A stretch of 64,000 nt of DNA from NCBI RefSeq assembly GCF_004010195.1, contig NC_057718.1, positions 76,954,079 through 77,018,078 on the forward strand. Direction: 5' to 3'. Positions 1,200 to 63,925 of the stretch are shown one piece after another. Source of the stretch: Chiloscyllium plagiosum. Its lineage: Eukaryota. The notes beneath the pieces are model-generated. The model searched no databases. It was given only the letters and a program-made list of their open reading frames with translations, and was not told the DNA's origin. The translations under genes and the position numbers were made by a program. Numbering within the stretch: the first letter of the stretch is position 1; each line of letters opens with the position of its first letter.

Positions 1200-1897
1200 C
1201 ACCCCACACCGCCATCCAAGGCCCCAAAGGATCCCTCCACATCTGGCAAAGAAAACCTCATCTACTGTGTCCATTGCTCTCAATGTAGTCTCCTCTACCT
1301 TGGGAAGGCAGGACACCAACTTGCTAAACGTTTCAGAGAACATATCCAGGACACATCCACTAAACAATCCACCACTCTGTGACTGACCACTTCAACTCCC
1401 CCTCCCATTCCGCCAACGACATGCAAGTCCTGGGTCTCTTTCACTGCCAAATCCTCGCCACCCAACGACAGGAGGAAGAACATTTCATCTTCCACCTTGG
1501 GACCATCCAACCACATAGAATCAATGTCGATTTCACAGTTTCCTCATCTCACTTTCCCCCAGCTTATCCCAGATCTAACCCTCCAAATCGGCATCGCCTT
1601 CTTGAACTGTCCTACTTGTCCATCTTCGTTCCCACCTATCCACTCCACCTTCCTCTGACTTAACACCATCACCACCCAGTTTCGAATACTTATTGCATTC
1701 CTAGCTACTTTCCCTCAGCCCCACCCTGATCCATTCCTCTCTCAGCCCCCCCATAGCCACCTATCCCACATTCCTGATGAAGAGCTTATGCTTGAAACAT
1801 CGAATCTCCTGTGCCTTGGATGTTGCCTGACCGGTTGCACTTTTCCAGCACCACATTTTGACTCTGATAACCTGCATCGGCTGCCCTCACTTTCTCC
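1200..1897 (+). mobile_element. 5'-truncated Penelope-like element (family A): GIY-YIG endonuclease remnant plus 3' repeat
   Basis: Frames give HFNSPSHSANDMQVLGL...EEEHFIFHLGTIQPHRINVDF, the GIY-YIG C-terminus of PLEs. 3' repeat has a hammerhead core at 1774. Degenerate TSD catagagacct/catacagactt. Confidence 0.85.
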
Positions 1898-3802
1898 CAT
1901 ACAGACTTAGCGCTGCCTCTTTTGTCTTTCTCATTTGCCTCTACAGGAAATAAAGACACGCAATGTGGTGAACAATGTTTGTGGTATTTTGTGCTAAAAT
2001 AGATATCATTGTATCATTGAAGTACAGAGGGAGACAATTCGGCCTATTCATTTCATGGCAGCTGTCTATTCTGCCTGTTAGTCCTATTCCCCACATCCCT
2101 ACAAGTTGATCTTTTCAATTTTTTCAGAGTCTGTAAGCCACTTGCCTGCTCAATGTGACAGATCATCAGTGAAAAATCTTCAGCTGCTATTTTATTAAAA
2201 ATATTATTCTTACAACTTTAGTTTGTACATAAATTACATGCTTTTGTCCAAGCATTAATTATTTTGTTTTTATTGAATGCTAAAGAAGGCGGAGAGGCTT
2301 CACAACTTTGTTCAGAACTACATATGAGAAAACTGTGACCATGGACAGTAATGTGATCAGTAAGTGCATGTCGTAATGTTTCAGAGCATAGCCAACTGCA
2401 ATTCCAGTACATTGCTGTTAATGTTGTTTTCTGTGCAATTTTCAGAGGTCTTTCCTTTTCAGAGGTAGAAATTAGGAAGTAATTTCGCCACAAGAAAATA
2501 AACTATTTTTAGTTCCCTTATTGTTAGTGCTCCTAGATTCCAGTTCATCAGCTCACCAGTAGTGCTGATTTCCCTTTTCAATGTTAGAGATCTAGAATTT
2601 ACTAAGTTATAAAAGAGCCATATGACCAAAAATATTTACAAATATGTAAATATATATGTGTACGTATAATGAATTTTTTTTTACTAATGTTGCAGCAAAT
2701 AAAAGGGTTGAAGTAGACAAAGCCAATAACAGTATACTGTAAACCCATTAACTGCTTGGGTAAAATATGGAAAAGATCACTAATTAATAGACAAAGTCTG
2801 GCTGCAGGGTGGAAGTAGAAACTAGCTGAGCAGAACTGTGAGCAATGTTAGCTGTCAACATCCTTCCTCCTCTGAATCACAAGTAAACACAAGACACTGA
2901 GGTTGGAATTTACAGAACAGACTTTTTTGTTTCCTAATATGAGTGACTGGCTCAATTTGACGCAGACAGTGGCATCTTCCCAGCCCTTGAATGATGTGGG
3001 CATCGGTGAGAAAGCTGACAACATAGGGTGAGATCAGCAATGACGAGATTTTTAATGTTGAGAGAAAGTAGTCTGATTCTCCAATCAAGTGTTGAATGGT
3101 AAGATGAAAATCTTGCTAGTGAGCAGTGAGAGACCTGGTTGTACTCTTTTGCATGGATTAATATGTCATTATTGTTTTATCTTGCTTCAGTAATATGCAG
3201 TTTCCCAATCTCCATCAACTGGATAGAAACTGGATAGCGACAATTCCCAGCATGAAAATGATGGGTAGCTGGTCACTTCAGCTCGTTATTTACTCCAACA
3301 GGATCCCATGTTGGACAGCAGTCACCAATATCTCAGGACACACTCCTTGGGCAGCAATTGTCTATAGACATTGACATAGGAAAGGCACCAGCCTCTCCAC
3401 ACCTCATCTCCAATCCACTTACAATGCATATTCTGTAATTCAGCATGGGGAGTTTGGAGACAACCAGCATCTTTCATTGCAGTGTCATTGGTAGGACAAT
3501 TTGTAGAGTGACCAATCTCATGGATTGGATTAGACTATATCGTAGGGCTCCCCACTTTGCACCGACTTTTATGCTCACACCATCTCTGCCTTGCCCTGCC
3601 AATTTGCATTTCTCCCACTCAGTCAGAGCTTAAAGATTCACAGACCTTCTGATTTGAATTGCCTTTTATTGCAGACACAAGCTAGGTAGCTTGAAATAGT
3701 TTTCAGCAACGTTTAGTCAAGAGAGTGGACAGGCTGCTGTAAGGCACTGTGTTAGGTCAATCTCTACTTGGTCAAGTCCCAGCAGTTTTGTGGAAAATTC
3801 AC

Positions 3803-4640
3803 TGGGTTGAATCTTTGTTTTTTTTTGGCTAAGGCTAAGTTATATCATTATTTCAGGAAGGTTTGTTGCTGCAGGGACTAGCAGGTTTTACCAGCAAATA
3901 TAACCAAGCCTGCCCACTTAATAACTTCCTCAGCTTCTGTGGTGTTTCTCATGCTCTATTCCCAGTCATCTTACCATGCATAATTCCTGGAACAGCTCAT
4001 AACTTTGAATTCTTCAGTATCCTTGTATCTTTTTAAAATGTCTGTTGTGCACCCAGACAAGAACTGTCAGTTCCCTGTACAATTCTTTATAATTGCACAG
4101 ACATGCCAAAGAGGGTCAAATTGGCAATCTGCTTTATGGACAGCATCCTGCTGAAAATAGTGGTACCAATGTGGAACTTCATCCACCCCCAAGGTCCCAT
4201 TACCATACCATACCAGTCTGCAGTCTGAGGTTATCTCACTTGAGGTAACACAGTCTCAGCTGTCTGGTGGAATATTCAACATGGTAGGAAGAAGGTCAAT
4301 GCCCTTGTTCAATCTCCCAAGTGCCACTATCTTCTCTCCCACTCACTCTATGTCTGCTACAGTACGTACCTCCTACAGAGGTGCATGCTCTGCTACTCAC
4401 ACTATTGCTCTCACCTTCACTGACTGTCAGTAACTGCAACACCAGACACCACTAACTCTGCATGCCCTCTGTGCTGCCTACTCACTTGCTCCAGACACCT
4501 TTCATCTGCACCAGCTGTGAGAGCTGTATCACCCACTTTCACCTTCTGTAATATGTGCCTTTCTTATTCTATGAGGAATACTGCCCTTAATAGGACAGAA
4601 AGTGTCAAGTTGACACAGTTAGACTCAATGAGTCCATTGC
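3803..4640 (+). mobile_element. Decayed Harbinger-like element remnant
   Basis: GGGTTGAATCTT TIR-like start; degenerate Myb/SANT-like text around 4230-4320 (gaagaaggtcaatgccctt, resembling KKVN.L). Confidence 0.25.
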
Positions 4641-4994
4641 AGGCTTAGTAACAATGTCAAGAAAAGTGTAAGTGGATGAAGCTGTAAAAGATTTTATAAA
4701 AGGTGTTTTTCTGTTGAAATTCTCTCAGTGTCATATCATTTTACTTCAAAGGTGCCCTGGTCCATAGTATAGTTTCATCTTTTATTTCATTCAGTGCCTT
4801 AAAAGAAAACCTTTGTCTTCCTTTCAAGCATCAATGTTACAAGAATCAATAATAAATACCAACAGTGTTTCTTCCCATCCCTTCATCTGACCTTATCCCT
4901 TCGTCCAATCTGGGCCCTAGCCATCTTTTACTGACATTTCCTATTCCAAAATGATCAAAGTTAGCTAAGACTTCAGCTTTAGCCCTTATGGTTT

Positions 4995-5875
4995 TTTTCT
5001 TTCATTCTTGTGATGTGAATATCACTGGATCAGCCACCATTTGTTGCTCACCCAGAATGTAGTGGGCTGTCGTTTTGAACCACTGAAGTCATAGAGTCAT
5101 AGAGATGTACAGCATGGAAACAGACCCTTCTGTCCAACCCGTTCATGCCGACCTTGGGGTATATGAACATGTGCAGTACAATTAGGAGGGAATTCTGGAT
5201 TTTGACCCAGCAACAGTGAAGTAACAGTGAGATATTTGCAAGTCAGGATGCTGGGTGGTTTGGAGGGGGAGCTTGCAGAAAATGGTGTTTCCATGTGTCT
5301 GCAGCACGTTTTCTTCTAAATGGTAATAGCCACGCATTTAGAAGGTGCTGTCAAAGAAAATTTGGTGAGCTGCTGTAGTGGATTTTGTAGGTATACACAC
5401 TGCTGCTTCTGTGCATCAGTGGTAGATGGATTGACTATTGAAGCTGGTAGATGGATTGTCAATCAAGTGGGTGGCTTTGTCTGGGATGGAATCTTGTATA
5501 TTGTAGGAATTGCACTCGTCCAGGTAAATGGAGACTACACTCCTGCAGATGGTGGGCAGGCATTGGGGAGACAGCAGATGAGTTCTTCACTGCAGAATTC
5601 CCAGCCTCTGATCTGTCTTTGTCATCACAATATTTATATTCCCAGCCTCTGACCTGATCTTGTAGTCATGATATTTATACGGCTAGTTGAGTTCAGTTTT
5701 TGGTCAAAGTTAACTTCTAGAATGTTGATAGTGAGGGATTTAATAAAGGGGTGATGATCTCGCTCTTGATGAAGATGGTCATTTCCTGACATTTGTATGG
5801 CATCAGTGTTACTTGCAACTTGGTCATGCTGCATGTGTGGGCACGGGCCACTTCAGTAACTGAGAAGTGATGATG
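4995..5875 (-). mobile_element. LINE 3' fragment (CR1/L2-like second family) with a short CR1 3' piece at ~5088-5152
   Basis: Same 3' sequence recurs at 21230-21590, 39815-40100 and 58455-58670; minus frames give an RT C-terminal-like ILEVNFDQKLNSTSRIN. Confidence 0.65.
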
Positions 5876-6524
5876 TTCCCAACCTCAATAAATTTGAGCA
5901 CAATTCAATGTTGAGCTCATCTTTGTCATTTTCATGTCAATATCTTCGGTCAGGATTCTTCTCTTTCCCCCTACATTATTCTCCTCACACTGGTTCTGTC
6001 CTTATATTATCTGGAATCCCATTTCACCCAAACCCTTACCTCTGGCCTTTTACCATCACTTTTTCTTTTTGTACAGAACTGCTGACATGACATCAGACCT
6101 CTCCAATTCTATATTCCCCTTTTTCATGCTAATCTACCCCTGAGATGAACACTACCTTCATGCCTGTGATGGTGACCATTTCCTCCGCCAATTTAAGCCT
6201 GCCCATATTAATCTATTCTTTATTCTATGCATTATTCTATTCTGATCCAGTATCATTCTGTCATTTCTCTCTGCCTTTTAGGCAAAATCCACCCTTAGTA
6301 AGATCTCATCAATGACACCTAATCCTGCTTACTCATGATTTTCTCCAAGCATTTTTGAACAATGAACAGCTGTTTATTCCAGTGCTTTTAATATTTTGAT
6401 GAAATAAATATTTCAGAACTCCTCTCCAACAATCAACTTTTGAATATTACTAGTACAAGTTCCCACCCAACTTAATCATTCTCAACCTATCTGCTTTTAA
6501 TGCACCAAATGAAAACATCTTAGA

Positions 6525-6689
6525 AACATGAAAACCCAGAAGTTAGAAAACTTATAGCACAGAACAAAGACTCCATCATATCTCTCATCCAAAAAGATTT
6601 TGTCTGATCTCACCCCAATTTCAAGCCTTTGCTCTGTAGTTTTTCAGGTTGTAGCACCTCAAGTGCATGTCCAAGTACTTATTAAATAT
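6525..6689 (-). mobile_element. Old CR1 LINE 3' end, continuing at 7490-7698 and 10667-10780
   Basis: CR1 3' UTR-like sequence reads continuously once the intervening inserts are removed. Confidence 0.55.
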
Positions 6690-7489
6690 TCTTATAATCC
6701 CAACTGACAATAATACCAGATAAGTCAAATTCCAGAGTGAGATCTGACTCTATAGACCATAAGTTTTGTTTTTTTCAATTTGATTATTGTGATGGTCAGT
6801 TACCAGACATCTCCGTACAAGGTTGCCTTTGTACTTTTATGAAATAACATAAGTTTATTACAAACACAAAAATGCTTTATATATGACAACTTGGAAAGAC
6901 CTTATCAGAGACGGAAATATTCAATCCCTTTACAGACATGTTGCTGAAGTGAAGTATCTTTATAAATTTCTTGCTCAACTGATGCAGCCATCCCTTTTGG
7001 TGACTTTCTATATATTCATCAATACAATTGTCTCTCTCTCTCTCTCTCTCTCTCCTAGACAGACTGACTCACTGAACTCCAAAGCTCAGAGCTTCTTCCA
7101 GCCATTTGCATTTAGACTGCAAAAACAGCTTAAAATTTCTTTCAGCTCTGGTGGCCTACCAAACCTAAGTTGTCTTTCTGTCAGTATATAACCTTTTTTC
7201 TTCTTCTGAACAGAACCTACTTGTGGCCCTTGACCTTTTTTTTTGCAAGTTGTAAGAAAAACTCAAATTTGTAAACTCTTCAGCAATTATCTTCCAGGTA
7301 GCTTATCTGGTAATTTATCTTCATTCATATGCTTTCTTTGGAATGCTGGTTTCAACTTGTTGCTCAAAATTACTTTCTGACTTTTAAAAAAAAAGCTTCC
7401 TTTACAGAACTTAAACCAAAAATCCATTTACTTCTTCTTTACAATCCAAGTTCCCAAACAATAATAACATACTATAGACTTCTGTTACA
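6690..7489 (-). mobile_element. Probable solo LTR (~800 bp) inserted in CR1
   Basis: Ends tcttataa...tgttaca (decayed TG...CA); flanks atat/atac suggest a degenerate 4-bp TSD; TTTATT (minus-strand polyA signal) near 6854; interrupts a collinear CR1. Confidence 0.5.
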
Positions 7490-7698
7490 ATACAATGAGG
7501 GATTCTGTCTATGTCACCCTTTCAGGTGGTAAACTTTAGATTTCCACCAGCCTCTGTATAATTTGTTTTCTCAGCTTACTGTTAATCTTTCTGCCAGTTA
7601 TTTTAAATCAATGGTTCCTGGCTTTTGGTCTTAGCCAATGAACAAAGTCCTCCTTATCCATTCTATCTCTATCCTTTCAGTTTTACACAAGTAAATCA

Positions 7699-7834
7699 AA
7701 GTTAAAAATTATACAACAGCATCTTATAGTCCAGCAAGTTTATTTGGAAGCACTAGCTTTTGAAGTGCTGTTCCTTCATCAGGTGATTGTGGAGTATAAG
7801 AAGTACTGTGTCCTATGATTTTATACTCCACAAC
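7699..7834 (-). mobile_element. Penelope-like family B fold-back, left part (right part at 10577-10654)
   Basis: Antisense 3' repeat with a decayed hammerhead core, then the fold-back centre. 12-bp TSD acaagtaaatca at 7687-7698 and 10655-10666. Confidence 0.8.
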
Positions 7835-8128
7835 GGTTGGCAGTTATCAGATACTAGTGTCTGTGGATGATGGCTGTGTGGGCCAGTGCGCATGAGTCAT
7901 GCCTGAGATGGTGTTGAGGAGAAAGTGAGGTCTGCAGATGCTGGAGATCAGAGCTGAAAATGTGTTGCTGGAACAGCGCAGCAGGTCAGGCAGCATCCAG
8001 GGAACAGGAGAATCGACGTTTCGGGCATAAGTCCTTCTTCAGGAATGAGGAAAGTGTGTCCAGCAGGCTAAGATAAAAGGTAGGGAGGAAGGACTTGAGG
8101 GAGGGGCGTTGGAAATGCGATAGGTTTC

Positions 8129-8389
8129 GGAGGCTGATGGAAGATTCTGGAACAGTTGAGGAATCTGGAGTGTGGGGGTAAGTACATGAAGGTTTTTAGT
8201 ACTTACTGTCTTTAATTTCCGATATGGCTAGGAAGAACTGTTTGTTTGGAGGCCGATGGAAGATTCTGGAACAGTTGAGGAATCCGGAGTGTGGGGGTAA
8301 GTACATGAAAGTTTTTAGTACTTACTGTCTTTAATTTCTGATATGGCTAGGAAGAACTGTTTGTTTCGGAGGCCGATGGAAGATTCTGG
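8129..8389. repeat. Tandem repeat, 119-120 bp unit, ~2.2 copies
   Basis: Unit starting ggaggc(c/t)gatggaagattctgg at 8129, 8248 and 8368. Confidence 0.95.
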
Positions 8390-8470
8390 AAACCTATCGC
8401 ATTTCCAACACCCCTCCCCCAAGTCTCTCCTCCCTACCTTTTATCTTAGCCTGCTGGACACACTTTCCTC

Positions 8471-8506
8471 ATTCCTGAAGAAGGGCTTATGCCCGAAACG
8501 TCGATT
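8471..8506 (+). ncRNA. Minimal type I hammerhead ribozyme motif (PLE family A)
   Basis: CTGAAGA(8475-8481)-A-GGGC ttat GCCC-GAAA-CG-TC; intact core. Confidence 0.8.
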
Positions 8507-9377
8507 CTCCTGTTCCCTGGATGCTGCCTGGCCTGCTGCGCTGTTCCAGCAACACATTTTCAGCTGAGATGGTGTTGGGTGAACAGAAACGTGGGGACTC
8601 TTCACAGCCAATGATGAATTCAAGTCACCAGGTACCTGCTTCAATTTCCATGTCAGTTTCTCATTTGTTCATGGCGGGTGGTAGGATAGGAAGCTGCATG
8701 TTATTGAGACAAGATGGTGATGTTAACATGGTCACTAACAAACAGTAATTCTCCATAATAGGCATCTTGCTCGTCCCTAGCAAGAATCTTACCTTGATGA
8801 GAATGTAGTGAGTTGCTCCCAATGTTGAGATAAACCATGCTGGATACCTTGTGCAATTCTGCTACATGTCTCGCCATCGCCCACATCATTCAGGCCTATG
8901 TAAGTTTCCGCGGCACAGGAACCAGCCGTTCCTCTGAAATCTTTGCTGGACTCAAGCTTTGACTTTACTTTCTCAAATGCATCTATTCAGATTGCATTTT
9001 ATCTGACCATTGTAACCACTCTGATGGTTCTTGAAGACTCATCCTCACACATGCTTCTCGTAATCAGACCATAATGCATTTGGACATGTGGATCTCCTTC
9101 TCTAGATGCTACTACTTCCATTTTTGCGCAATTTTTTCATTTATACTACAGTACAGTAGTTTGACCGCATAGAAAATATTATGATCTGTAGCTTGAATTC
9201 AGCTTCATATTTCATGCGTTTTGCTAGAGGACCCATTTCTCTTCTTGGCTAGCCATGAGCAGCCCGTGTGCCGTAAGCTCCTGCGTATCATTTATTTATC
9301 TGACCCATATCATCCATAATCTCATCCTAAGTGGAGGAAATGACCTAGTGGTATTATCACTAAACTATTAATCTAGA

Positions 9378-9478
9378 AAGCTGAAAATGTGTTGCTGGAA
9401 AAGCACAGCAGCATCCAAGGAGCAGGAGAATTGACGTTTCGGGCATGAGCCCTTCTTCAGGAATGAGGAAAGTGTGAA
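9378..9478 (-). mobile_element. PLE family A 3' repeat fragment with intact hammerhead core (9433-9460)
   Basis: Reverse complement reads CTGAAGA-A-GGGC tcat GCCC-GAAA-CGTC. Confidence 0.85.
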
Positions 9479-9544: not shown

Positions 9545-9645
9545 GAAACAGAAACAGAAGTTGCTGGAAGAGCTCAGCAGGTCCAACGGCATCTGTGGAG
9601 AGAGATCAGAATTGACATTTCGGGTCCAGTGACCCTTCCTCACAT
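9545..9645 (-). mobile_element. PLE family C 3' repeat fragment
   Basis: Reverse complement reads tgaggaa-GGGTC actg GACCC-GAAA-tgtc; related to 25168-25265 and 62063-62160. Confidence 0.7.
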
Positions 9646-9905
9646 TGGAGTTTTTGAAGACTCATTCTGATACGTGATTCTCATAAACAGACCGTTATTA
9701 ACATGATGCATTTGGACAATTATATTAATTGTGAGCCTCTTACATTTGCGCCAAATCTGCACTTGCCATTGTGTTACTGGTGCTCCCTTTTGAGGTCAAT
9801 TGGCTTCCTGACAGTTAAGAGTATGTGTGAATGAATACTGATTGAAGTTGAATGTCTGGTGTCTGTATAGGTTCCAAGATGTCTGGGGTTTTGTAGCCCA
9901 AGGGA

Positions 9906-10293: not shown

Positions 10294-10576
10294 ATGGGCA
10301 GCACGGTGGCACAGTGGTTAGCACTGTTGCCTCACAGCGCCAGAGACCCAGGTTCAATTGAGTTTGCACATTCTCCCCTTGTCTGCGTGGATTTCCTCCA
10401 GGTGCTCCAGTTTCCTCCCACAGTGGAGGTTAGGTGAATTGACCATGCTAAATTGCCTGTAGTGTTAGGTGTAGGGGGATGGGTCTGGGTGGGTTGGTCT
10501 TCGGTGGGTCGGTGTGGACTTGTTGGGCCGAAGGGCCTGTTTCCACACTGTAAGTAATCTAATCTAATCTAATCTA
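10294..10576 (+). mobile_element. HE1-like tRNA-derived SINE (internally deleted)
   Basis: A box tggcacagtgg, B box ggttcaatt, CR1-like 3' end and (AATCT)n tail. Confidence 0.9.
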
Positions 10577-10654
10577 AACCACCTGATGAAGAAGCAGCGC
10601 TCCGAAAGCTTGTGCTTCCAAATAAACTTGTTGGACTGGCACCTCCAAATCATG
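10577..10654 (+). mobile_element. PLE family B fold-back, right part, with hammerhead core
   Basis: CAC-CTGATGA(10583-10589)-A-GAAGC agc GCTCC-GAAA-GC-TT-GTG, followed by the TSD copy. Confidence 0.8.
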
Positions 10655-11601: not shown

Positions 11602-11914
11602 ATGGGCGGCATGGTGGCACAGTGGTTAGCACTGCTGCCTCACAGCGCCAGAGTCCCGGGTTCAATTCCCGCCTCAGGCAACTGTCTGTGTGGAGTTTGC
11701 ACATTCTCCCCGTGTCTGTATAGGTTTCCTCCGGTTTCCTCCCACATTTTTAAAAATGTGCAGTTTAGGTCCATTGGCCCTGCTAAATTGCTCATGGTGT
11801 TAGGTGAAGGGGTAAAAGGTAGGGGAATGGGTCTGGGTGGGTTGCTCTTTGGAGGGTCGGTGTGGACTTGTTGGGCCGAAGGGCCTGTTTCCACACTGTA
11901 AGTAATCTAATCTA
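11602..11914 (+). mobile_element. HE1-like SINE, full length
   Basis: A and B boxes, conserved body, (AATCT)n tail. Confidence 0.92.
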
Positions 11915-13109
11915 AACAAGAGGCCTCACCAATGTCCTGTACAACTTCAACATGATGTCCCAACTCCTATAGTCAGAGGTCTGAGCAACAAAGGCAAGTG
12001 TGCTAAATGCTTTCTTAACCACCCTGTCTACCTGTGATGCAAATTTCAAAGAATACGTACATGAACCCTAGGTCTCTCTGTTCTACAAAACTACCCAGGG
12101 CTCTACCATTAATTGTATGAGCCCAGCCTGCGTTTGTTTAATCAAAATGCAACACTTCACAGTTATCCAAATTAAATACCATCTGCCATTCCTCAGCCTA
12201 TTGACCCAATGGATCAATATCTCTGTGTAATCTTAGATAACCTTCTTCACTGTCCACGATACCCCCAATTTGTGTTTCATCCACAAACTTACAAAGCATG
12301 CCTCCTATATTCTCATCCAAATCATTTAAACACATGACAAACAAAAGCAGACTGAATACTGATCTCTGTGGAACACTGCTGGTCATAGGCCTCCAGTCCA
12401 AAAGACAATCCTCCACCATCATCCTCTCCTATCTTTAAGCCAATTTTGTGTCCAGTTGGCAAGCTCACCCTGGTTCCCATGTGATCTAATTTTGCTATTT
12501 AGTCTACTATGCAGAACCTTGTTAAATGCTTTACTGATGTCCATGTAAACAAATTCTATCATTCTGTACTCATCAATCTTTTTGATTACTTGTTCAAAAA
12601 ACTCAATCTTCGCACAAAATCATGCTGGTGATACCTAAGCAATCCTTGGCTCTCCAAATGCATGTAAATCCGATCTTTCAGAATCACCTCCAGCAACTTA
12701 GCCACCACCAATACCAGGATCTTATGTCTATAATTCCCAGGCTTCTCTTTACAGCCTTTCTTAAATAATGGGATAACATTAACCACTCTCAATCCTCTAG
12801 CACCTCACCCATGGTTATGTAGGATGCAAATATTTCTGCTAGGGGCCCCACAATTTCTTCCCTAACTTTCCATAACATCTTGGGATACACTTGATCAGAT
12901 CCCGGAGATTTATTTACCTTTCTGTTTTCTATGATCTCCAGCACTTCCTCTTCTGTAATGTGAAATGTTTTCAAAACATCTATATTTATTTCCCTGAGTT
13001 CTCTAGCCTCCATTACATTCTCCACAGTAAAAAACTGACATAAAACATTCACTGAGTATCTCTCCAATGCCCTTCTTGTATTGCGATAATCAGAACTTGA
13101 CACGTTGTA

Positions 13110-15985: not shown

Positions 15986-15989
15986 AAAC

Positions 15990-17771: not shown

Positions 17772-17902
17772 GAGGAGAAAGTGAGGTCTGCAGATGCTGG
17801 AGATCAAAGTTGAAACTTTATTGCTGGAACAGCACAGCAGGTCAGGCAGCATCCAGGGAACAGGAGATTCGACGTTTCGGGCACAGGCCCTTCTTCAGGA
17901 AT
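17772..17902 (-). mobile_element. PLE family A 3' repeat with tail and intact hammerhead core (17871-17898)
   Basis: Reverse complement reads CTGAAGA-A-GGGC ctgt GCCC-GAAA-CGTC. Confidence 0.88.
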
Positions 17903-18890
17903 AGAGTAGTTGAGTTATAGGTTTCACCTGAATTGGAAAGGGACCAATATCTTTCTGGAAAGATTTACTATTTTGGGAGCCTGTAAATATAGGGACAGGG
18001 GAAGCGTATTGGGAGCTTCCTAAGTAACAGTGAAAATACAAAGAAGGGTGGAAATGGTTCTGAATCAGAAAAGAGCAAGTTATTTAGAAAAGACAGACAA
18101 GAGCAAGTTCAGAGAATGAGGTAACTGAAGAATCTAACTGCATTTATTTCAATGCAAAAGGTCTTACAGGTAAGACTAATGAACTCAGGACATATATGGG
18201 AACATGGAACTAGGACATTGCAGCTATTATAGAAACTTGGTTGAAGGAAGGATGACTGGCAGCTCAATGTTCCGGGTTTTAGATGTTATAAGAAGGGAAT
18301 AAAAGGAGGCAAGAAGGGAGGGGATGGTGGCATTTTTGATTAAGGAAATCATTACTATTGTAGTAGAGAAGATATTTCTGAGGGATCATTTAGTGAAAAT
18401 ATATGGGTTGAAATTAGAAATAGGAAGGGGTGATCCCCTTGTTGGGATTGTACTATAGGCACCCCCTCCATTAGTCAGAGGGAAATTGAGAAGCAAATAT
18501 GTAAAGAAAAGTCCCAAATATATGTAAGAATAATAAGGTTATAATAGTAGTGGATTTTAATTTTCCAAACATTGACTGGGGTTGCCAACATATTAAAAGT
18601 GTGATAGTGAAGAATTTGTTAAATAGTTGAAGAAATTTTCCTTATCAATATGTAAATGTACCTCCTAAAGAAGGAGCAAAATCTGACTTTCTCTTGGGAA
18701 ATAAGGCAGGGCAAGTGACTGAAGTGTTTGTAGGAGAACGCATTGCGACTAGAGGTCATATTACTATTAGTTTTACAATAGTTATGGAAAAGGATAAGTC
18801 TTCCATAAAAGATAAAATTCTTAAATGGAGAAAGGCAAGTTTTAAGTATATGAACCAAGAACTTTCAAAAGTTGATTAGAATAGAGCTTT

Positions 18891-19021
18891 GAGGAGAAAG
18901 TGAGATCTGCAGATGCTGGAGATCAGAGCTGAAAATGTGTTGCTGGAAAAGCGCAGCAGGTCAGGCAGCATCCCTGGATGCTGCCTGACCTGCTGCGCTT
19001 TTCCAGCAACACATTTTCAGC
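18891..19021. mobile_element. Minimal 131-bp PLE family A fold-back
   Basis: ~36-nt tail, then perfect ~47-bp inverted arms around a 2-nt loop; TSD tagaatagagcttt at 18877-18890 and 19022-19035. Confidence 0.92.
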
Positions 19022-47047: not shown

Positions 47048-47312
47048 CTCAGCACCGCCTTCCTAACCTGCAATCTTCTTCCTGACCTCTCCGCCCCCAC
47101 CCCACTCCGGCCTATCACCCTCACCTTGACCTCCCTCCACCTATCGCAATTCCAACGCCCCTCTTCCAAGTCCCTCCTCCCTACCTTTTATCTTAGCCTG
47201 CTGGACACACTTTCCTCATTCCTAAAGAAGGGCTTATGCCTGAAACGTCGATTCTCCTGTTCCTTGGATGCTGCCTGACCTGCTGCGCTTTTCCAGCAAC
47301 ACGTTTTCAGCT
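47048..47312 (+). mobile_element. PLE family A 3' repeat, tail-less
   Basis: Matches 8389-8565; hammerhead core mutated (ctaaaga). Confidence 0.88.
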
Positions 47313-47945
47313 GTAAATAAGAAATAACAAGGAAAGTAGTGATTTATACGCCTCCTGTTAGTAGTTGCACTATTGGACAGAATATAAATCAAGAGATAAT
47401 GAAGCCTCGTAAGCAATGTACTTGAATAATCATTGGAGATTTTTTAACCTTCATTTAGGTTAGATGAATTAAGTTGGCAAAAGTAGTCTGGAGGATAAGT
47501 TCATGAGTCATATTTGAGACCATTTCTTAAAACAATATGTTACGGATTTAACTTGAGAGCAGGTTGTTTTAATTCTGATAGTATGTAATAAGACAGATTT
47601 AATCAATTACTTCATTATAAATGGTTCTCTAGATAAGAGTGTTCATAACACATAAGTATCTATGAATAGGATGCTTGATCCATGGCTAACTAATGAATTT
47701 AAGGATGGCATCAAATTAAAAGAACATTCTACAGTACTGAAAAGATTACTGGCTGGTTAGAAGATTTAAAAAAATTAGAAACCAGCAAAGTACAACAAAA
47801 AGAAAGGGAAATTGGAGCATGAGAGAACATTACCAAGAAATATAAAAACAGACAGAAAAAACTTTGAGAGGAAAAGAATAGGGAAAGTTGCCATGGGTCT
47901 CTTAGAGAGGTGAGACCACGGAATTAATAATGGAAATCAAAGAAA

Positions 47946-48362: not shown

Positions 48363-51300
48363 ACAGCAGATCAGGCAAGATAGTCGATGTTTTGGGCACA
48401 GGCCCTTCATCAGGAATGTGGGTGTAGAAGGGAGCTGAAAGATAAATAGGAGGATGGGGAGGGACTGGGGGGGGGGAAGTTAGTTGGGAAGCCCAAAGGT
48501 GGATACAGGTGGGGGCTGCTTTTGATAGGTCAGTGGGGAGGTTGGAGCGGATAGGTGGGAAGGAAGATGGACAGGTTGGACAGGTTAAGAGGGTGGTGTC
48601 GATTTAGAGAATTGGATCAGGGATGAGGTGGCGGGAGGGGAAATTTGGAAACCGGTGAAGTTAGTGCTATGTGGTTGCAGGGTCTCATGGCAGAGATAAG
48701 GCCTTCTTCCTCCAGTCATTGGATGGCTTAGATTTGGCGGTGGAGGAAGCCCAGAACTTACATGTCCTTGGTGGAGTGGGAGGGGGAGTTGAAGTGGTCA
48801 GCCACATGCTGGTGGGTTTTGGGTGCTTGTGCCCCAGAGATGTTCCCTGAAACACTCCGTGAATTGGCGTTCTGTCTCCCCGATGTAGAGGAGACCACAT
48901 TGAGAGCAACAGACTCAGTAGATAAGGTGAGTGATTGAGAAGGAAAATTTCTGCTGGATGTGAAAAGATCCTTTGGGGCCTTGGACAGAGGTGAGGGTGG
49001 AGGTGTGGGCACAGGTTTTACTTCTCTTGCAGCGGCAACGGAAGGTGCTGGGAGTGGAGGGTGGATTGAGGGGGCTTGGACTTAACGAGGGAGTCACAGA
49101 GGGAATGACCTCTGTGGAATGCAGGTCAGGGGTTGGGGGAGGGAAATACGTCTCTGGTGGTGGGGTCTGATTGTTGGTGGCGGAAATGGCAGAAGCCAAG
49201 TGTGCTTTATCTGGATCTTAGTGGGGTGGAAGATGAGGACCACGGGTGTTCTAACCTTGTTTCAGTTGGAGGGATGGGGTTCAAGGGCGGAGGTGTAGGA
49301 AGTGGAGGAATTAAGTTGGAGGGCATTGTTGATTACTTGGGAGAGGAAATTGTGATCCTAGAAATAGGAGGCCATCTGGGATGTTCTAGAGTGGAATTGC
49401 ACCCCCTGCGAGCAGATTTGGTGTAGACAGAAGAATTGGGAGTACGGGAGGGGAGCTGTAGTCCAGGTAGCTGTGGGAGTTGGTGGCTTTGAAGTAGATG
49501 TCCGAGTTGAGTCGGTCGCCAGAGACTGAGATGGAGAGGTCCAAGAAAGGGAGGGAGGTATCCAAGATGGTCCAGGTGAACTTAAGGTCAGGGTGGGAGG
49601 TGTTAGTGAAGTTGATGAACTATTCAACCTCCTCATGAGAGCATGAGGTGGCACAAATATGATCATCAATGTAACGGAGGAAGAGGTGGGGGATGAACAT
49701 AGAACATAGGACATAGAACATAGAACATCATAACACAGCACAGGCCCTTTGGCCCTTGATGATGTGCCAACCTTTTTATCCTACTTTAAGATCAAACTAA
49801 CCTATATACCCTTCATTTTACTATCATCCATGTGCTGCTTAAAAGTCCCTAATGTACCTGATTCTACTAGTACCGCTGGTAGTGCATTGCATGCGCCCAC
49901 CATTCTTTGTGTAAAGAGCTGACCTCTGACATTCTCCCAAACGTTCCTCTAATCACCTTAAAATTATGCTGCCTTGTTATAGACATTTCTGCTGGGAAGA
50001 AGTCTCTGGCTATTCACTCTACCTATGCCTGTCATCACCTTGTACACCTCTATCAAGTCACCTCTTATCCTTCTTCTCTCCAATGAGAAAAGCCCTAGCT
50101 CCCTCAATCTTTCTTCATAAGACATGTCCACCATAAGATGGTGCCTGTGTAAATGTGGACGATGGACTGTTCCTTGTATCCTATGAAGAGACAAACATAG
50201 CTGGGCCCATGCGGGTGCCCATGGCTACCCCTCTGGTCTGACGGAGGTAGGAGGATTGGAAGGAGAAGATATCAAGGGTGAGGACCAGTTCAACATTTGA
50301 ATGTGTATCAGTGGAGAGAAAATGTTGGGTTGGCTTGAGAGGAAGAAATGAAGGGCTTGGAGTCCTTTGACATAGTGCATGGACATGTATAGGGACTGGA
50401 TGTCCATGGTTAAGATGAGGCATTGGGGGTGGGGGAAATGGAAGTCATGGAGGAGATGGAGGGTGGGGTAGTGTCGCAAATGTATGTGGGGAGATCCTGG
50501 ACCAAGGAGGAAAGGACAGTGTTGAGAAATGAGGAGATATGTTTGGTAAGACAGGAGTAGCAGAGACAATGGTCAACCAGGGCAGTCAGGTTTGAGGATT
50601 TTGAGTAAGAGGAAAACCAGGCGGTGTGGGGTTGCAAACTATGAGGTTGGAGACTGTGGATGGGAGATCCCCTGAGGTGATGTGGTTGTGGATGGTCTGG
50701 GACATGATCGTTTGGTGATGGGAGGTGAGGTCATGGTTGAGGGGTGGTAGGAGAAGGTGTCGGTGAGTTGGTGCCTTCCTTCAGTGATGTAGAGTTTGGT
50801 GCACCAAACTACTACTGCACCCCTCTGTCCGCTGGCTGAATGGTAAGGTTGGGGTTGGACCAGAGGGAGTGGCTGAGGAGTGGAATGGGTGTGCGGTTTG
50901 TGAAGGTGAGAGGTTGGAGTGGGTGAGAGGGGTGGACAGGTTGAGGGAGTCAATGTCACAGCAGCAGTTGAAGGTAAAGAGTTTGGGGGAGATAAGAGAC
51001 CAGGACAGGGTGTCCAAGAGGATGGAGTATGTTTGAGGTAGGAGAAGAGGTCCTCGGAGGGTGGGTGGGAGTCACAATTGAAAAAGGAGGCATGAAGGTG
51101 GAGGCAGTGGAAGGAAAGCAAAATGTTACAAAGTGTATGGAATTCATTGACCCAAAAGTGCAGAGGGATGAAAGTGGAACTTTTACTGAGGACTGATCAT
51201 TTATCCTCAGTGAGGGATGGTCTGGGGGATGCTAAAAACCAAGCAGGGCTGGGGGTAGGGCCCTGGTGTAGAGCTGGAGGTGGGAGTTGGGGTGGAGACT

Positions 51301-51741
51301 GCCTCTGGTTTGGGGGCAATCATGTGATCATTGGTAACATCACTGGAGGAAGTGACATAAATAGCAGCAGACATAGAAGCAGAAGCGGTGCGTTCGGTAG
51401 CACCCGTGGGGAAAGAAGTGATGTTCTGGGTGGTGTTTGCGGAAATGGTGTCTTCAGTGGCGTTCTCGCTGGCAGCGAGGCAATATGGTCAAACCTGTCC
51501 ATCTTCCTTCACACCTATCTGCTTCACCCATCCCATTAACCTATCACAATCACCCTCCACCTGCACTCACCTATTGCCTTCCCAGCTATCTTCCTCTCAG
51601 CCCCACCCCACCCTCCTATTTATCTTTCAGCCCCCATCCCTCTCCACGTTCCTGATGAAGGGCTTATGCCCAATATGTCGACTCTCCTGCTCCTCAGATG
51701 CTGCCTGACCTGCTGTGGTTTTCCAGTGCCACACTTTTCAA
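48363..51741 (-). mobile_element. Long Penelope-like element (N-terminal region, RT, GIY-YIG, 3' repeat) with an inverted repeat at ~51488-51741
   Basis: Minus frames [60 protein letters not shown]; sense copy of the 3' repeat with core at 51652. Confidence 0.92.
49697..50148 (-). mobile_element. CR1 3' fragment inserted in the PLE RT
   Basis: (gaacata)n tail; [31 protein letters not shown]. Confidence 0.9.
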
Positions 51742-52120
51742 CATGGAATAAAAATTGGCTCATAAGCAAAACAAAGAGTAGGGTCAATCAAACATTGGCA
51801 GTCTGTGACTAGCTAGGTACGCAAAAATGATTAGGATATCAGTGTCAATTGTATTAGTTCCAAGTTTACAGTTGACACGTAGCTAGGAGGGAATATGAGC
51901 TGTGACATTGATGCAAAGTGGCTTCAAGGGGATTTAATAATTCACTAAAGGCTGACATACAGGTGCAGCAAGCTAGTCAGAAGATTAGTGGGAGATTAGT
52001 TTTAATCACAAGAGGATTTGAGCAACATAGTCTGCTTTAATTTAATAGAATCTTGGTTAGAGTGCTGCTGGAGTACTTTGTACAGTTTTGGTCACCTTAT
52101 CTTAGAAAGGATATTGAGCA
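51742..52120 (+). mobile_element. Old CR1 RT fragment
   Basis: SKFTVDT and LEYFVQFWSPYLRKDI remnants. Confidence 0.7.
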
Positions 52121-58870: not shown

Positions 58871-58879
58871 ACAAAGCTG

Positions 58880-59215: not shown

Positions 59216-59216
59216 A

Positions 59217-59733: not shown

Positions 59734-60322
59734 GAGTTTTAGAGTCATAGGGCCATACAGCACAGAAACAGACCCGTCGGTCCAACCAGTCCATGCCGAA
59801 CATAATCCTAAACTAAACTAGTCTCACTTGCCTAATCCTAACTCATACCTCTCCAAACTGTTCCTATTCATGTATCTATCCAAATGTCTTTTAAATGTTG
59901 TAATTGTACCTGCATCCACCACTTCCTCAGGAAGTTCATTCCCTTAAGCGAACCACTCTGTGTAAAATATTTGTCTCAATGTCTTCTGTAAATCTCTCTC
60001 CTCTCATCTTAAAAATCTAGCCCCTAGTCTTGAAATCCCCATCTTAGGGAAAAGACAACTACCGTTAATCCTATGTACACCTCTCATTTTATAAACTTCT
60101 AATAGGTCACCTCTCAACCTTGTACGCTCCAGGAGAAAGGTTCCAGCCTACCCAATCTTTCTTTATAAATCAAACCTTCCATACCCAACAACATCCTGTT
60201 AGATCTCTTCTGAACCTCCTCCAGCTTAATAATATCCTTCCTATAACTGGGCGACTAGAACTGGACACAGTATTCCAGAAGAGGCCTCATCAATGTCCTG
60301 AACAACCTCAACATGACTTCCC

Positions 60323-60410
60323 AACTTCTATACTCCAAGGACTGAGCAATGAAGGTAAGCATGCCAAACTTCTATACTCCAAGGACTGAGCAATGAAGGT
60401 AAGCATGCCA
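60323..60410. repeat. Perfect 44-bp tandem duplication
   Basis: aacttctatactccaaggactgagcaatgaaggtaagcatgcca twice. Confidence 0.95.
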
Positions 60411-60610
60411 AACACCTTTTTAACCATCCTGTCTATGCAAACTTCAAAGAATAGGGACCTGCACCCCTAGGCCCCTTTGTTCTATAACACTACTCAAGGC
60501 CCTACCATTAATTGTATAAGCCCTACCTTGGTTTGTTGTATCAAAATGCAACACCTCACATTTATCCAATTGAATTCCATCTGCCATTTTTCAGCCCATT
60601 GACCTATTTG

Positions 60611-60696
60611 GAAGAAGGGCTCATGCCCGAAATGTCGATTCTCCTGCTCCTTGGATGCTGCCTGACTGCTGCGCTTTTCCAGCAACACATTTTCAG
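60611..60696 (+). mobile_element. 86-bp tail-less PLE family A insertion
   Basis: TSD cattgacctatttg at 60597-60610 and 60697-60710. Confidence 0.9.
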
Positions 60697-60762
60697 CATT
60701 GACCTATTTGATCAAGATCGCTTTGTAATCTTAAAAAACTTTCTTCATTTTTTACTATGCCA

Positions 60763-60928
60763 GGTCTTTTTCAATGTATAATTTCAGTTACATCACACTG
60801 TAAACTTTTGCTATAAATTCTGTGTCTTACAATCTTATACTCCACAACCACCTGATGAAGGAGCAGCACTCCGAAAGCTAGTGCTTCCAATTAAACCTGT
60901 TGGACTATAACCTGGTGTAGTGTGATTT
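60763..60928 (+). mobile_element. PLE family B 3' repeat
   Basis: Degenerate TSD ttttactatgcca/ttttattatgcca. Confidence 0.85.
60849..60883 (+). ncRNA. Minimal type I hammerhead ribozyme motif (PLE family B)
   Basis: CAC-CTGATGA-A-GGAG cagca CTCC-GAAA-GC-TA-GTG; stem I CAC/GTG closes the core. Confidence 0.82.
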
Positions 60929-62062
60929 TTATTATGCCACAAATTTTGTGTTATCTGCAAATTTACTAACTACGCCTTCGATATTCTCATCCAAGTCATT
61001 TGTATAAATAACTCCAAAAGACGACCGAGAACCAAACACTGCTGGTCTCAGACTTCCAGTCTGAAAAGCAATCTTCCACTATTACTCCATGTCTCCTGCC
61101 ATTAAGCCAATTATGTATCCATTTGGCAAGCTCACCCTGAAACCCATGTGAGCTAACTTTACTAATTAATCTGCTATGCGGAACCTTGTCAAAGGTTTTA
61201 CTAGAATCCAAATAAATAATGGCTACTGCACTGCTATCATCAATCTTTTTGATAATTATAATCAAGTTTGTGAGACACGATTTTCCTTCGATTCCCATTG
61301 ACTCCAGTATTGTTTGGACTCCTTGATGCCACACTCAGTCAAATGATGCCTTGACATCAAGACTTGTCACTCTCAACTCATTGCTGGAGTTCAGCTCTTT
61401 TATCGATGTTTGGACCAAGGCTGTAATGTGGCCAGAAGCTAAATGGCTCTGGTGGAACACAAAAGGAGTATCAGCGAACATGTTGATTTGAAGAACTTTT
61501 CTCCTTTAGTATGAAACATGGTTGAATGATATTTCCAATAGTTGGTTATAATAGTTTTATTTTAATATCAATTTAAAAATTCTGGCTCCTAAGTCTGTCC
61601 ATAGTGGACACTGAGTAAATGACTATGGAGAATACACAGGGCTATGGAGGGTGCAAGAGATACATGAAGGAATATGGAAGACTATGAGGAAGAATGGAGG
61701 TGGCAAATATCAGCCTGTGAACCAGATGAGACAGTGACAGTGGGTGAGGGGTGAGGGTTTGACAGCCTGAAATTTATCTTTAAAACACTCAGTAAGTAGA
61801 GGCAGGGGTTTTAGCCTATTTCCCCACCATCCAACCTCCTTCATTGATACCTTAGGTCCTTGGTGGGGCGGACTCCATTCTGCATCCACCTTTCAGGAAT
61901 GAAACACAGCACGTGGAAGTCTTATTGGAAGAACCAGGTCTGCTGGGTCGGGAAATTTCCCAACTTGATCTTCCTGCTTCCCCTATGAAGATCGGGATCA
62001 TAGTGTTTGGTTTCACATCCCAGAAGAGTATTTCATAGCCAAAGAATGAGTCTTTTTAAACG

Positions 62063-62512
62063 TAACAGAAAATTGCTGACGAAACTCAGCAGGTCTAGCA
62101 GCATCTGTGGGGAAAAAGTAGTGTTAACATTTTGAATCTGGTGACTCTTCATCAGAACTGATTGGAGCCCAGAAAAAGTGATAGTTGTGTGACAGATGAG
62201 ATTGAGGATGGTGGGGGAAGAGGTGACTGGATTAGTGAGACAGAGCCCACAGAGAGAGAGGTATGAAAAGGGTAGGCAGATGAAGGGGTCGTGGATAGTA
62301 TGCCAGGACAGAAGAGAAGTTGAATGAATGGTGGTGAGAGGTGAGAGAGGGAGAAAATGAGTTGGCTGTGCTGAAAGCAACCCATGGTCATTAAAAAACA
62401 TGGAAGGATGGAATCAGGCTCTAAAGTCTTTGAACTCAATGTTGAGTCCTAGACTGGAAAATGAGGTGCTGCTTTATGAACTTGCGCTGAGGCTTGCTGG
62501 AACAGTACAGCA
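62063..62512 (-). mobile_element. PLE family C 3' region
   Basis: Reverse complement gtt-CTGATGA-a-gagtc acca gattc-aaaa-tgtt-aac; GIY-YIG terminus remnant near 62430-62510. Confidence 0.75.
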
Positions 62513-62675
62513 AGCTCTACATACCCTTCCTCCAATCCCGTTTAAATTTAAGAAAACTTATTCCTTGGTGATAAAATGTTTTCCTGAGATGTGAAAAGAA
62601 AACACTATGGGCTAGATCTTCATAGGTTGTGAATGTGGATGGGTAAGGGCGTTGCTAATGGTATATGTCTAGACA

Positions 62676-62921
62676 TCTGGATTAGTGGTGCTGGAAAAGC
62701 ACAGCAGTTCAGGCAACATCCAAGGAGCAGTAAAATCGACGTTTCGGGCAAAAGCCCTTCATCAGGAATACAAGCGTTCTTTTCCACCTGTATTCCTGAT
62801 GAAGGGCTTTTGCCCGAAACGTTGATTTTACTGCTCCTCGGATGCTGCCTGAACTGCTGTGCTTTTCCAGCACCACTAATTCAGAATCTAGTTTCCAGCA
62901 TCTGCAGTCATTGTTTTTACC
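62676..62921. mobile_element. PLE family A fold-back with an intact hammerhead core on each strand
   Basis: Cores at 62738-62765 (-) and 62796-62823 (+); tail on the right; TSD tatatgtctagaca at 62662-62675 and 62922-62935. Confidence 0.93.
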
Positions 62922-63674
62922 TATATGTCTAGACAGTTAGCTGGAGATGAATGTGAAGTATATCCCTGAAAATTATAGCTCTAATGTTTTTGGGGAGGTT
63001 GGAGAATGCAGGTATCCAGGAAATTGGTTAGAAAATCAAGAGCTCTTACACAATTCAATGGCAGGATCACATCATACTGTTCTCAACTATTTCCAGCTTA
63101 ATAGCTAACTAAATAGACAGGCTGACTGTCCTAGATACGATAACCAATGTCAGGAGGTCATAGCTATAGACTTTGCGGCACAGATCATCATAATTGGGAG
63201 ACAGCAACAGATTAAAATTTGGAAGAATTGGGAGGGAGGTCATTGTGACAGAAGAGGAGCAGTAATTGGGAATTGCAGGAGTTAGGTTGTTGGCAATATA
63301 TCTTGAAATCTTTCTTTGTTATGCAGATCCTGTTTATTGATCTGAACATTCCTTCAAGATCAGTGCTCAGTTATGTCCATGTGCTTCTTTCAGGAAATCA
63401 CGGCTTGTTTTTTGCACTTGGAGATACATTATCAATTGCCAAGTTACTGCCTGCTTGTTCTACTTGAGAAGAACATTGGTCACCAATTGGGAATTAGAGG
63501 CTGGTGATCATAAGAGGGGACAGAAAGTGGCTGAGATGGTAAACAAAAGGCCAAAGACTGTTTTAACTCAGGTGACAGCCATTTGCTACTTCATTTATCA
63601 GGGCAATGCTTTGATCATTCAGAATGATCTGCCTCATTTTGAAATTAAACAAAGCCTTATTATTAAATCATCGT

Positions 63675-63925
63675 TGAAAAGGTGGCACTGGAAAAGTACA
63701 GCCGGTCAGGCTGCACCCAAGGAGCAGTAGAATCGACATTTTGGGCATAAGCGCTTAATCAGGAATGTGGGGCTGTGGGGGTGAGTTGGGGAGGGGACTG
63801 AGGGATAAATGAGTTGAAGGGTTGACTCTGGGATGAGGTGGGGGGAGGGAAATAAGAAAACTGATGAAATCGACATTGATGCCGTATGGTTGGAGGAATC
63901 CAAGGTGGAAGCTGAGGCATTTGTC
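63675..63925 (-). mobile_element. PLE family A fragment
   Basis: Decayed 3' repeat and GIY-YIG terminus. Confidence 0.8.

Follow-up and report, generated by a model that had tools for sequence, protein, structure and literature searches.

Minimal type I hammerhead ribozyme motifs recur at the 3′ ends of three co-resident families of Penelope-like elements (PLEs), here termed A, B and C, in a 64,000-nt stretch of the genome of Chiloscyllium plagiosum (NC_057718.1, positions 76,954,079-77,018,078; genome size 3.56 Gb), hereafter the window. These motifs very probably represent hammerheads carried in remnants of the 3′ pseudo-long terminal repeats (pLTRs) of the three families, with selection likely acting on the source elements only and the scattered copies likely inactive and decaying neutrally. 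The finding adds shark-type families to a class of ribozymes described in 2014. The copies also display a common boundary, or 5′ wall: about half of those that reach it stop just before stem I of the hammerhead, in these three Neptune-like families and not in a fourth family, D, which we take to be Poseidon-like.

Hammerhead motifs in the window

Motifs were located by a plain search for the core and an ungapped scan of the window, alongside a strict family-agnostic descriptor that required the core together with four or more pairs in stem II and two or more in stem I, and PLE 3′ units were counted by a family profile search. Coordinates of motifs are those of core position C3, with H17 denoting the cleavage nucleotide. 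The strict descriptor recovered 7 sites in the window versus 0.0 in 30 dinucleotide shuffles, and the profile search recovered 29 PLE 3′ units—20 of A, 6 of B and 3 of C—of which 25 span the hammerhead, a count slightly above the roughly 20 motifs of the original prediction. That prediction, made from the sequence of the window, had nearly every repeat carrying the core, which proved too generous: all core bases are kept in 12 of the 25, the core with stem II and the first two stem I pairs in 7, and only 5 are fully intact including a Watson-Crick palindrome (8475+, 17898-, 60852+, 62765- and 62796+). These five had all been listed by it among the intact cores; a sixth, 9460-, does retain its core but has a C.A mismatch as its first stem I pair. 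Its coordinates and strands were likewise borne out, save that the minus-strand positions 9433, 17871 and 62738 denote H17, with C3 at 9460, 17898 and 62765.

The anatomy of the motif varies by family around a constant core. Helix III is reduced to a palindrome, as had been predicted: ACGU in A and C and AGCU in B. As ACGU is a CpG target, positions 15.2-16.2 read CG in just 105 of 197 A copies (77 are CpG-decayed) and 18 of 84 C copies (52 singly CpG-decayed), whereas the GC of AGCU survives in 46 of 51 B copies. An extra base, A, precedes stem II in all three families, and the 10.1-11.1 pair in family A is G-C in 140 of 179 copies and G-U in 26. Stem I of family A is mostly broken by a U.U apposition (96/142 copies in the random sample described below). 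The family C pattern foreseen from the window, with GGGUC/GACCC as stem II, holds genome-wide (103 exact matches versus 0 for a reversed control), yet none of the three C copies in the window is intact. The B stem II had been given as GGAGC/GCUCC, but the copy at 60852 reads GGAGC/ACUCC and has lost the fifth pair. Weak family C scores at 10546, 11894 and 33919 fell on tails of short interspersed elements (SINEs) and were rejected as hammerheads.

The background sample took 10 kb at each of 152 fixed round coordinates (1,462,452 non-N bases) and yielded 431 units, 281 spanning the motif, 129 with an intact core and 54 fully intact. From these, 18.7 units and 2.3 intact copies would be expected in the window; the 5 intact copies correspond to a resampled P of 0.09. 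The intact fraction is alike in the two (5/25 and 54/281), every core base is kept in 12/25 and 129/281, respectively, and about 46% of the window is repeat sequence matched by other sampled loci of the same genome. The window is ordinary for this genome, which by extrapolation holds about a million PLE ends and 1e5 intact motifs, or about 37 intact copies per Mb. The PLE pieces of the window are as follows, with insertions made of two opposed arms given without a strand.

1196-1897 (+): 5′-truncated family A PLE with GIY-YIG fragment (PF20815, E=1.6e-4), 3′ region and hammerhead, C3 1774; the core is kept and the stems pair, but the palindrome has become ACAU
7696-7791 (-): family B 3′ unit, C3 7782; G12A, stem II mismatch; short inverted upstream piece at 7806-7834
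7917-8563: head-to-head two-arm family A insertion; 14-bp duplication (7903-7916, 8564-8577); C3 8042(-) with stem II A.C mismatch, C3 8475(+)
8471-8506 (+): intact family A minimal hammerhead, AUUC CUGAAGA A GGGC/GCCC GAA ACGU C^GAUU; predicted cut after 8502; predicted to be sequestered by the inverted arm over 33/33 nt
9380-9468 (-): family A 3′ unit, C3 9460; unbroken core and palindrome, with C.A as the first pair of stem I
9553-9649 (-): family C 3′ unit, C3 position 9643 is G; GGGUC/GACCC; palindrome AUGU
10576-10644 (+): family B 3′ unit, C3 10583; core and AGCU retained, A.C mismatch in stem II; adjoins SINE tail
17867-17902 (-): intact family A minimal hammerhead with perfect stem I AUUC/GAAU, in solo copy 17809-17905; 5′ end of the copy about 36 nt before the cut
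18892-19021: two-arm family A insertion; 14-bp duplication; both arms start 3′ of the cut, without hammerhead
25167-25260 (+): family C 3′ unit, C3 25171; decayed, with two changes in the core
26073-26169 (+): family B 3′ unit, C3 26081; decayed, with two changes in the core
27729-27905: two-arm family B insertion; 27729-27816(-) with G12A, 27814-27868(+) 3′ half only, tailed
28007-30372: long two-arm family A insertion; duplication at both ends; reverse transcriptase (RT; YIDD) and GIY-YIG fragments; 586-N gap; C3 28149(-) with stem I A.G and ACAU, C3 30264(+) with ACAU
31138-31229 (-): old family A 3′ unit, decayed
32859-33086: two-arm family A insertion; 14-bp duplication; C3 32944(-) with 3 core changes, C3 32958(+) with intact core, stem I C.C and AUGU
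33327-33423 (+): family A 3′ unit, C3 33334; G12A, ACAU
47139-47313 (+): family A 3′ unit, C3 47222; G5A
48363-49754 (-): family A fragment of RT and GIY-YIG with a decayed hammerhead at its end, C3 48413; G12A, ACAU
51488-51747 (+): family A 3′ unit, C3 51652; 2 core changes
60610-60697 (+): family A solo copy; 14-bp duplication; starts inside the core, 26 nt before the cut
60849-60883 (+): intact family B minimal hammerhead, CAC CUGAUGA A GGAG/CUCC GAA AGCU A^GUG; predicted cut after 60880; unit 60843-60934
62069-62162 (-): family C 3′ unit, C3 62155; G12A, AUGU
62675-62923: two-arm family A insertion; 14-bp duplication; an intact hammerhead in each arm (62734-62769 -, 62792-62827 +), predicted mutual pairing over 32-33 of 33 nt
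63673-63769 (-): family A 3′ unit, C3 63762; 2 core changes

The families are Penelope-like elements

Families A, B and C are PLEs, and the original prediction of three co-resident PLE families with minimal type I hammerheads is upheld by RT and/or GIY-YIG sequences lying upstream of the motifs on the same strand. This identity rests on GIY-YIG matches, pairwise similarity and Atlas; Pfam did not recognize the PLE RT pieces and a PDB sequence search gave no match. In family A, a GIY-YIG domain at 1197-1379 lies upstream of the 1774 motif, fragments of the RT and the endonuclease occur at 28268-29508 and 48621-49754, and a first look genome-wide gave 66,346 candidates. In family B, a 400-aa frame in locus L172 comprises RT, cysteine linker and GIY-YIG (Atlas, 0.97 to HTH_animal/GIY-YIG clusters); its RT is 27% identical to that of family A by pairwise comparison, and the B hammerhead lies downstream on the same strand in 9 of 12 loci with a B endonuclease. 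In family C, GIY-YIG lies upstream of the hammerhead in L185, L072 and L074.

The linkers read CNRKKCKTC in A (L092), CHGGRCKAC in B (L172) and CNRRCNTC in C (L072). A CX2-5CxxC linker before a C-terminal GIY-YIG is a trait of Neptune and Nematis (PMC8557442), and by this motif, common to Nematis too, the three families appear Neptune-like. Two candidates for full elements with long open reading frames, L091 and L092, were set aside on account of N gaps. Family D, absent from the window, is found at L119:4919-5009 and in L103, L170 and L112; it has the clearest stem I covariation and lacks the 5′ wall.

Covariation and decay

The stem covariation proposed from the window holds between families and subfamilies but not among the window's own 17 A copies: these are 84.6% paired versus 83.9% in shuffles, i.e., not above them, with shuffle counts of 136/500 for pairing and 32/500 for the covariation score. 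The family A structure in the window nevertheless beats all slid controls. Of the 34 pairs assessed in the random sample, three remain significant for Watson-Crick-preserving change after Bonferroni correction: D 7-46 (p=0.0003), A 18-27 (p=0.0007) and A 6-39 (p=0.001). Five further pairs are nominal at p<0.01. Position N7 varies freely and the core is fixed between families.

It might be argued that chance produced the motif and repeat copying multiplied it, or that the wall is an alignment artefact, as the copies descend from few masters, making copy number no independent evidence, and family C had only 7 long references. This has been largely refuted and is most improbable: an 11-base core, an additional base ahead of stem II, G10.1-C11.1 and a palindrome are common to four families whose stems differ; the D 7-46 pair of stem I occurs as U-A, G-C and C-G in 12, 11 and 5 copies; and the wall persists both at identities of at least 90% (42/78) and in reference-free measures based on target-site duplications (TSDs; 17/28), yet is absent from D in the same pipeline.

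A domesticated host hammerhead, such as the intronic motifs of amniotes, would be expected to keep single copies better than their neutral flanks; within the genome, decay looks neutral at C, G, T and CpG positions, though not at A. The essential G12, which lies within a CpG, is changed in 21 of 141 A copies, with other CpG positions at 15-27%, and the C, G and T of the family A core are kept no better than those of the flanks (p 0.41, 0.43 and 0.08, respectively).

Insertion architecture and the 5′ wall

TSDs of at least 11 bp flank 68/246 A, 13/67 B, 8/104 C and 1/43 D copies, as against a null of 8/276. The two-arm insertions flanked by TSDs (duplications of 11-17 bp) share one geometry: exactly one arm is tailed in 28/28 of those seen from both sides, with one arm ending near +60 from the cut and the other at least 20 bases further, mostly near +97. 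Most of them consist only of pLTR ends. Two stretches of the window, 59740-60720 and 18110-19100, contain short PLE insertions with clean 14-bp duplications inside older LINE-like fragments. Between the arms of the insertion at 7917-8563 lies a filler (8125-8392) of about 265 bp with a direct repeat of about 122 bp, which does not look PLE-derived.

The 5′ ends of copies, called for 203/241 A, 60/65 B, 70/104 C and 38 D copies, accumulate in a narrow zone upstream of the predicted cut. In family A, 60 of the 130 copies reaching -30 end at -39..-30, against an upstream background of 25/384 ends per 10-nt bin (p 1e-22), and the proportion is 42/78 among copies at least 90% identical to a long reference. 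Family B has an equivalent wall (19/41 at -39..-30, p 5e-6), as does family C, weakly (22/28, with only 7 long references), whereas in family D the same pipeline places 1/35 ends in the equivalent zone. The reference-free measure agrees: among the 28 two-arm insertions, 17 extend on average to 20-37.5 nt upstream of the cut, with 5 shorter and 6 longer (lengths above 400 nt not being seen by it). Among single-arm TSD copies ending within -70..+30, 11 of 14 end at -35..-23, and of the 8 intact C loci inspected by eye, 7 start no more than a few nucleotides from stem I. At the cut itself there is no excess of copy starts (19/382 versus 19/379 in neighbouring bins, an excess of a few percent being beyond the reach of the 1.5-Mb sample), and only 2 of 137 young copies start exactly there.

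The wall may mark the start of the element's RNA. The 5′ arm of stem I reads TCATTC in A and TCAGTT in C, and B has no clear initiator-like match. The A and C sequences resemble an initiator. The Penelope promoter has been described as an internal one with initiator and downstream promoter elements (PMC2377424), and an initiator-like motif has been noted in the pLTR (PMC3846280). The alignment in the PMC4209133 supplement likewise shows UCA(G/U)U or UUCA shortly before the core of several PLE hammerheads from other animals, which may fit the initiator idea. A splice-acceptor explanation of the wall was discarded, as TSDs abut the copies without a shared exon 1 and B has no AG nearby; an extra cap-derived G at the 5′ ends of copies, inspected by eye, was inconsistent.

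A serious rival, which could well account for the wall, is that the RT stops at the edge of a folded or protein-bound hammerhead, that the zone is an antisense fold-back or self-priming point, or that solo copies give rise to short non-autonomous RNAs. The spread of the ends from -39 to -20 instead of at a single base would suit such a process, as would the 43 of 58 fold-back arms at risk that end at -39..-30, the absence of a clear initiator-like motif at the wall of family B, and the proposal of self-priming on antisense RNA for head-to-head PLEs (PMC3846280). However, the ends come after the whole fold has been copied and not at the 3′ side of stem II (the -9..0 bin has 11/187 ends), and single-arm TSD copies end in the same zone. 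Moreover, a single fold-back accounts less well than two priming events for the one tailed and one untailed arm of all 28 pairs, and family D has an equivalent hammerhead but no wall.

Predicted compatibility of dimers between families

Double-hammerhead energies were computed on natural copies, with both helix III and stem I intermolecular. The predicted homodimer energies are -10.5 to -14.1 kcal/mol for A, -9.5 to -14.7 for B, -17.3 for C and -2.9 for D; a 4-pair stem I brings D+D to -8.5 kcal/mol without altering the ranking. For A+B the prediction is +4.3 to +8.2 kcal/mol, with 2 of 4 helix III pairs forming, for B+C it is +1.5 to +4.1, and for A+D and C+D it is +0.6 to +2.6 kcal/mol. A+C lies at -2.8 to -8.1 kcal/mol, with the 5′ arm of C pairing 4/4 with the 3′ arm of A but not the reverse. 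Thus, A+B double hammerheads are predicted not to form, and B would be orthogonal but A and C only partly so, with stem I counting in the model as much as the palindrome. The original prediction had ascribed family-specific dimerization to the palindromes; the predicted incompatibility of A and B agrees with this, but A and C share ACGU and stem I also decides. Differing palindromes, and genomes with several families, had already been listed in the PMC4209133 supplement.

One may go further and see the differences in palindrome and stem I as a selected, family-specific dimerization code preventing cross-cleavage of co-resident PLE RNAs. The contrast between strong homodimers and unfavourable A+B, B+C, A+D and C+D combinations is what such a code would give, and no publication joining heterodimers with the palindromic hammerheads of Penelope was found by a search that lay outside closed journals and bioRxiv supplements. 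It is nonetheless an improbable reading: ACGU is common to A, C and D; A+C is half-compatible (-8.1); D+D is itself weak in the model; the partner is supplied in cis by a tandem element; and CG, GC and UA palindromes with 6-8 families per genome are already published (PMC4209133). Orthogonality also arises automatically from compensatory drift, and there was no sign of selection for it. The natural A, B, C and D set does furnish ready orthogonal dimer ribozymes for comparing hetero- and homodimers. Same-strand, same-family hammerhead pairs 177 bp to 2.4 kb apart occur at L112:2267-2601, L185:1497-1724, C4:54039858-54040069 and C36:38224330-38226733, and are natural dimer substrates of the retrozyme-like or pLTR-pair kind.

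Proposed mechanism

The wall and the two-arm geometry are features of the copies themselves, from which we infer an RNA start before stem I, double priming, run-off and joining. In an active tandem element of the form pLTR-ORF-pLTR, hammerheads of the same family would pair via ACGU or AGCU and swap stem I arms, producing a double hammerhead that may cleave weakly, probably with the help of the element's protein (by analogy with PMC4209133 and PMC11167929). At a staggered cut in the target, the protein would likely use both nicks to prime cDNA, starting from two internal sites at about +60 and +97 from the hammerhead cut. Most cDNAs would then likely run off the 5′ end of uncleaved RNA starting just before stem I and be joined head to head with some trimming, with a minority of long copies coming from priming in the downstream pLTR. 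Run-off from uncut RNA would account both for the pile-up of ends 30-39 nt before the cut and for the cut itself showing no excess.

Tentatively, then, the transcript of a Neptune-like PLE might start at the 5′ arm of stem I, and most of the roughly 1 million copies might be cDNAs that were primed twice within the first pLTR and ran off uncleaved RNA. The hammerhead would thus lie at the 5′ end of the mRNA, uncut before insertion, with Poseidon elements arranged differently and with stem I and the palindrome giving family-orthogonal dimers. If the wall is the RNA start, cleavage would remove only a 5′ leader of about 35 nt, suggesting a role in decapping, translation or turnover and not in making the template for insertion. 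The role of PLE hammerheads has been called unclear (PMC8557442).

Several points weigh against this picture and against the interpretation of the motifs as ribozymes of source elements. In every homodimer the double-hammerhead fold lies 5-22 kcal/mol above the predicted minimum-energy dimer; the cut sites are predictions from the motif; the RNA start is an interpretation of the wall; and no full tandem pLTR-ORF-pLTR element was recovered, so that the source-element step rests on published work. An Rfam scan of the window at the gathering threshold gave 0 hammerhead matches, a miss likely explained by the absence of helix III and loop 1. The covariation permutation test takes no account of relatedness and so overstates significance; the Bonferroni-passing pairs are therefore subfamily switches, a handful of events. 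The A residues of the family A core are kept better than those of the flank (16/704 versus 37/557 changed, p=0.0002), which we tentatively attribute to subfamily-diagnostic positions in the flank. Finally, the window is modestly enriched, with 29 units versus 18.7 expected (about 1.5x; resampled P about 0.03).

Possible cleavage of host transcripts

The original prediction also envisaged a transcript through the locus bearing many potential self-cleavage sites, which fares poorly. The locus is not a plausible multi-site substrate, because intact copies are few (5/25; at most 3 on the plus and 2 on the minus strand), several would be locked in hairpins and compatible partners are distant. Three of the five, 8475, 62765 and 62796, are arms of head-to-head insertions predicted to pair with the other arm over 32-33 of the 33 hammerhead bases, and compatible same-strand intact partners lie 54.3 kb (+) and 44.9 kb (-) apart.

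More broadly, the scattered copies might act on host RNA, by multi-hammerhead cutting of a locus transcript or as domesticated regulators. The genome-wide density of intact copies and the presence of family A sequence, in both orientations, in polyA single-cell reads (run X19, 2% read) leave some room for this. We consider it very unlikely, in view of the scarcity, predicted locking and spacing of the intact copies in the window and of a similar pattern in the random sample, where 23 of 54 intact copies have an inverted partner and there is one close compatible pair in 1.46 Mb (L112, 334 bp). No read of run X19 falls within the unique stretch 8608-9291, nor is any accumulation of molecule ends seen, a weak negative given that 2% of one fragmented library was read. 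No host exon was recognized in unmasked stretches of the window and 40 kb of its flanks, a scan that short exons would escape.

Other elements in and near the window

SINEs with (TCTAA)n tails, which we presume to be tRNA-type, lie at 10294-10567, 11602-11915 and 33901-34192, and the B copy at 10576 starts directly at one such tail. A fragment of a LINE-type RT is found at 42621-42911 (PF00078, E=0.00026). The segment 43469-46681 is unmatched by other loci and has an A-rich skew and several stop-free plus-strand frames; within it, 45851-46225 matches a gag-polyprotein aspartyl protease below the cut-off (PF13975, E=0.0015), and the whole looks like a broken LTR-retroelement or a proviral gag-pro relic. 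About 14-16 kb to the left of the window, L096:3586-5850 consists of a short unit repeated in a long tandem array, with every plus-strand frame open.

Comparison with known systems

Minimal hammerheads in the pLTRs of metazoan PLEs were described by Cervera and De la Pena in 2014 (PMC4209133), and those of the shark share with them the type I topology, the CUGANGA/GAAA/UH core, the extra base before stem II and G10.1-C11.1. The palindromic 15.2-16.2 is likewise common to both, CG, GC and UA all being listed there (ACGU, AGCU and AUAU, with GC in turtle), as are several families per genome (6 and 8 in coelacanth and Xenopus), a preponderance of solo truncated copies and opposite-strand pairs, there 100-700 bp apart. 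The differences lie in the host and families, which are new, in a stem II of 4-5 bp versus 7-8 bp in Schistosoma, in the U.U of family A stem I and in abundance: about 1 million ends and 1e5 intact motifs by extrapolation, versus 4,000-9,000 in coelacanth and Xenopus under a strict descriptor. Neither 'shark' nor 'Callorhinchus' occurs in the two searchable supplements of that paper (file 1 being outside the search), and no relevant print on Penelope hammerheads of sharks was found, closed journals and bioRxiv supplements again being outside the search.

By description, a likeness may also be drawn to the PLE-associated, dimer-cleaving hammerhead variants of Lunse, Weinberg and Breaker, as summarized in PMC6765202, in the short palindromic stem III, cleavage as dimers and association with PLEs. 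The non-LTR retrozymes of animals (PMC7229834; bioRxiv 10.64898/2026.07.22.740005), reported from one chondrichthyan, similarly have type I hammerheads related to those of PLE pLTRs, dimer-dependent in vertebrates; the window differs in having neither a head-to-tail array with a hammerhead in each unit nor a close same-strand intact pair.

In architecture, the copies resemble the endonuclease-bearing PLEs (PMC8557442, PMC3846280) in their 5′ truncation, inverted 5′-truncated copy, tail at one end, TSDs and initiator-like pLTR motif, though the TSDs are 11-17 bp here and 8-10 bp in Adineta. The Poseidon element PAc of Anolis (PMC11167929) provides a mechanistic parallel: its hammerhead, also in the pLTR, cuts only with protein, is dispensable for insertion in vitro and shows no RNA-seq ends at the cut. 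Like the process proposed here, it has two internal RT start sites defining an optional tail, nicking and extension of both strands, and uncleaved RNA as the main substrate. The shark families A, B and C differ in being Neptune-like by their linker and in their 5′ wall, which is not reported for PAc in the available text of PMC11167929 and is lacking from D. The one-sided tail and the two arm ends of the shark insertions match the two RT start sites of PAc (PMC11167929) and the one-sided tail of endonuclease-bearing PLEs (PMC8557442).

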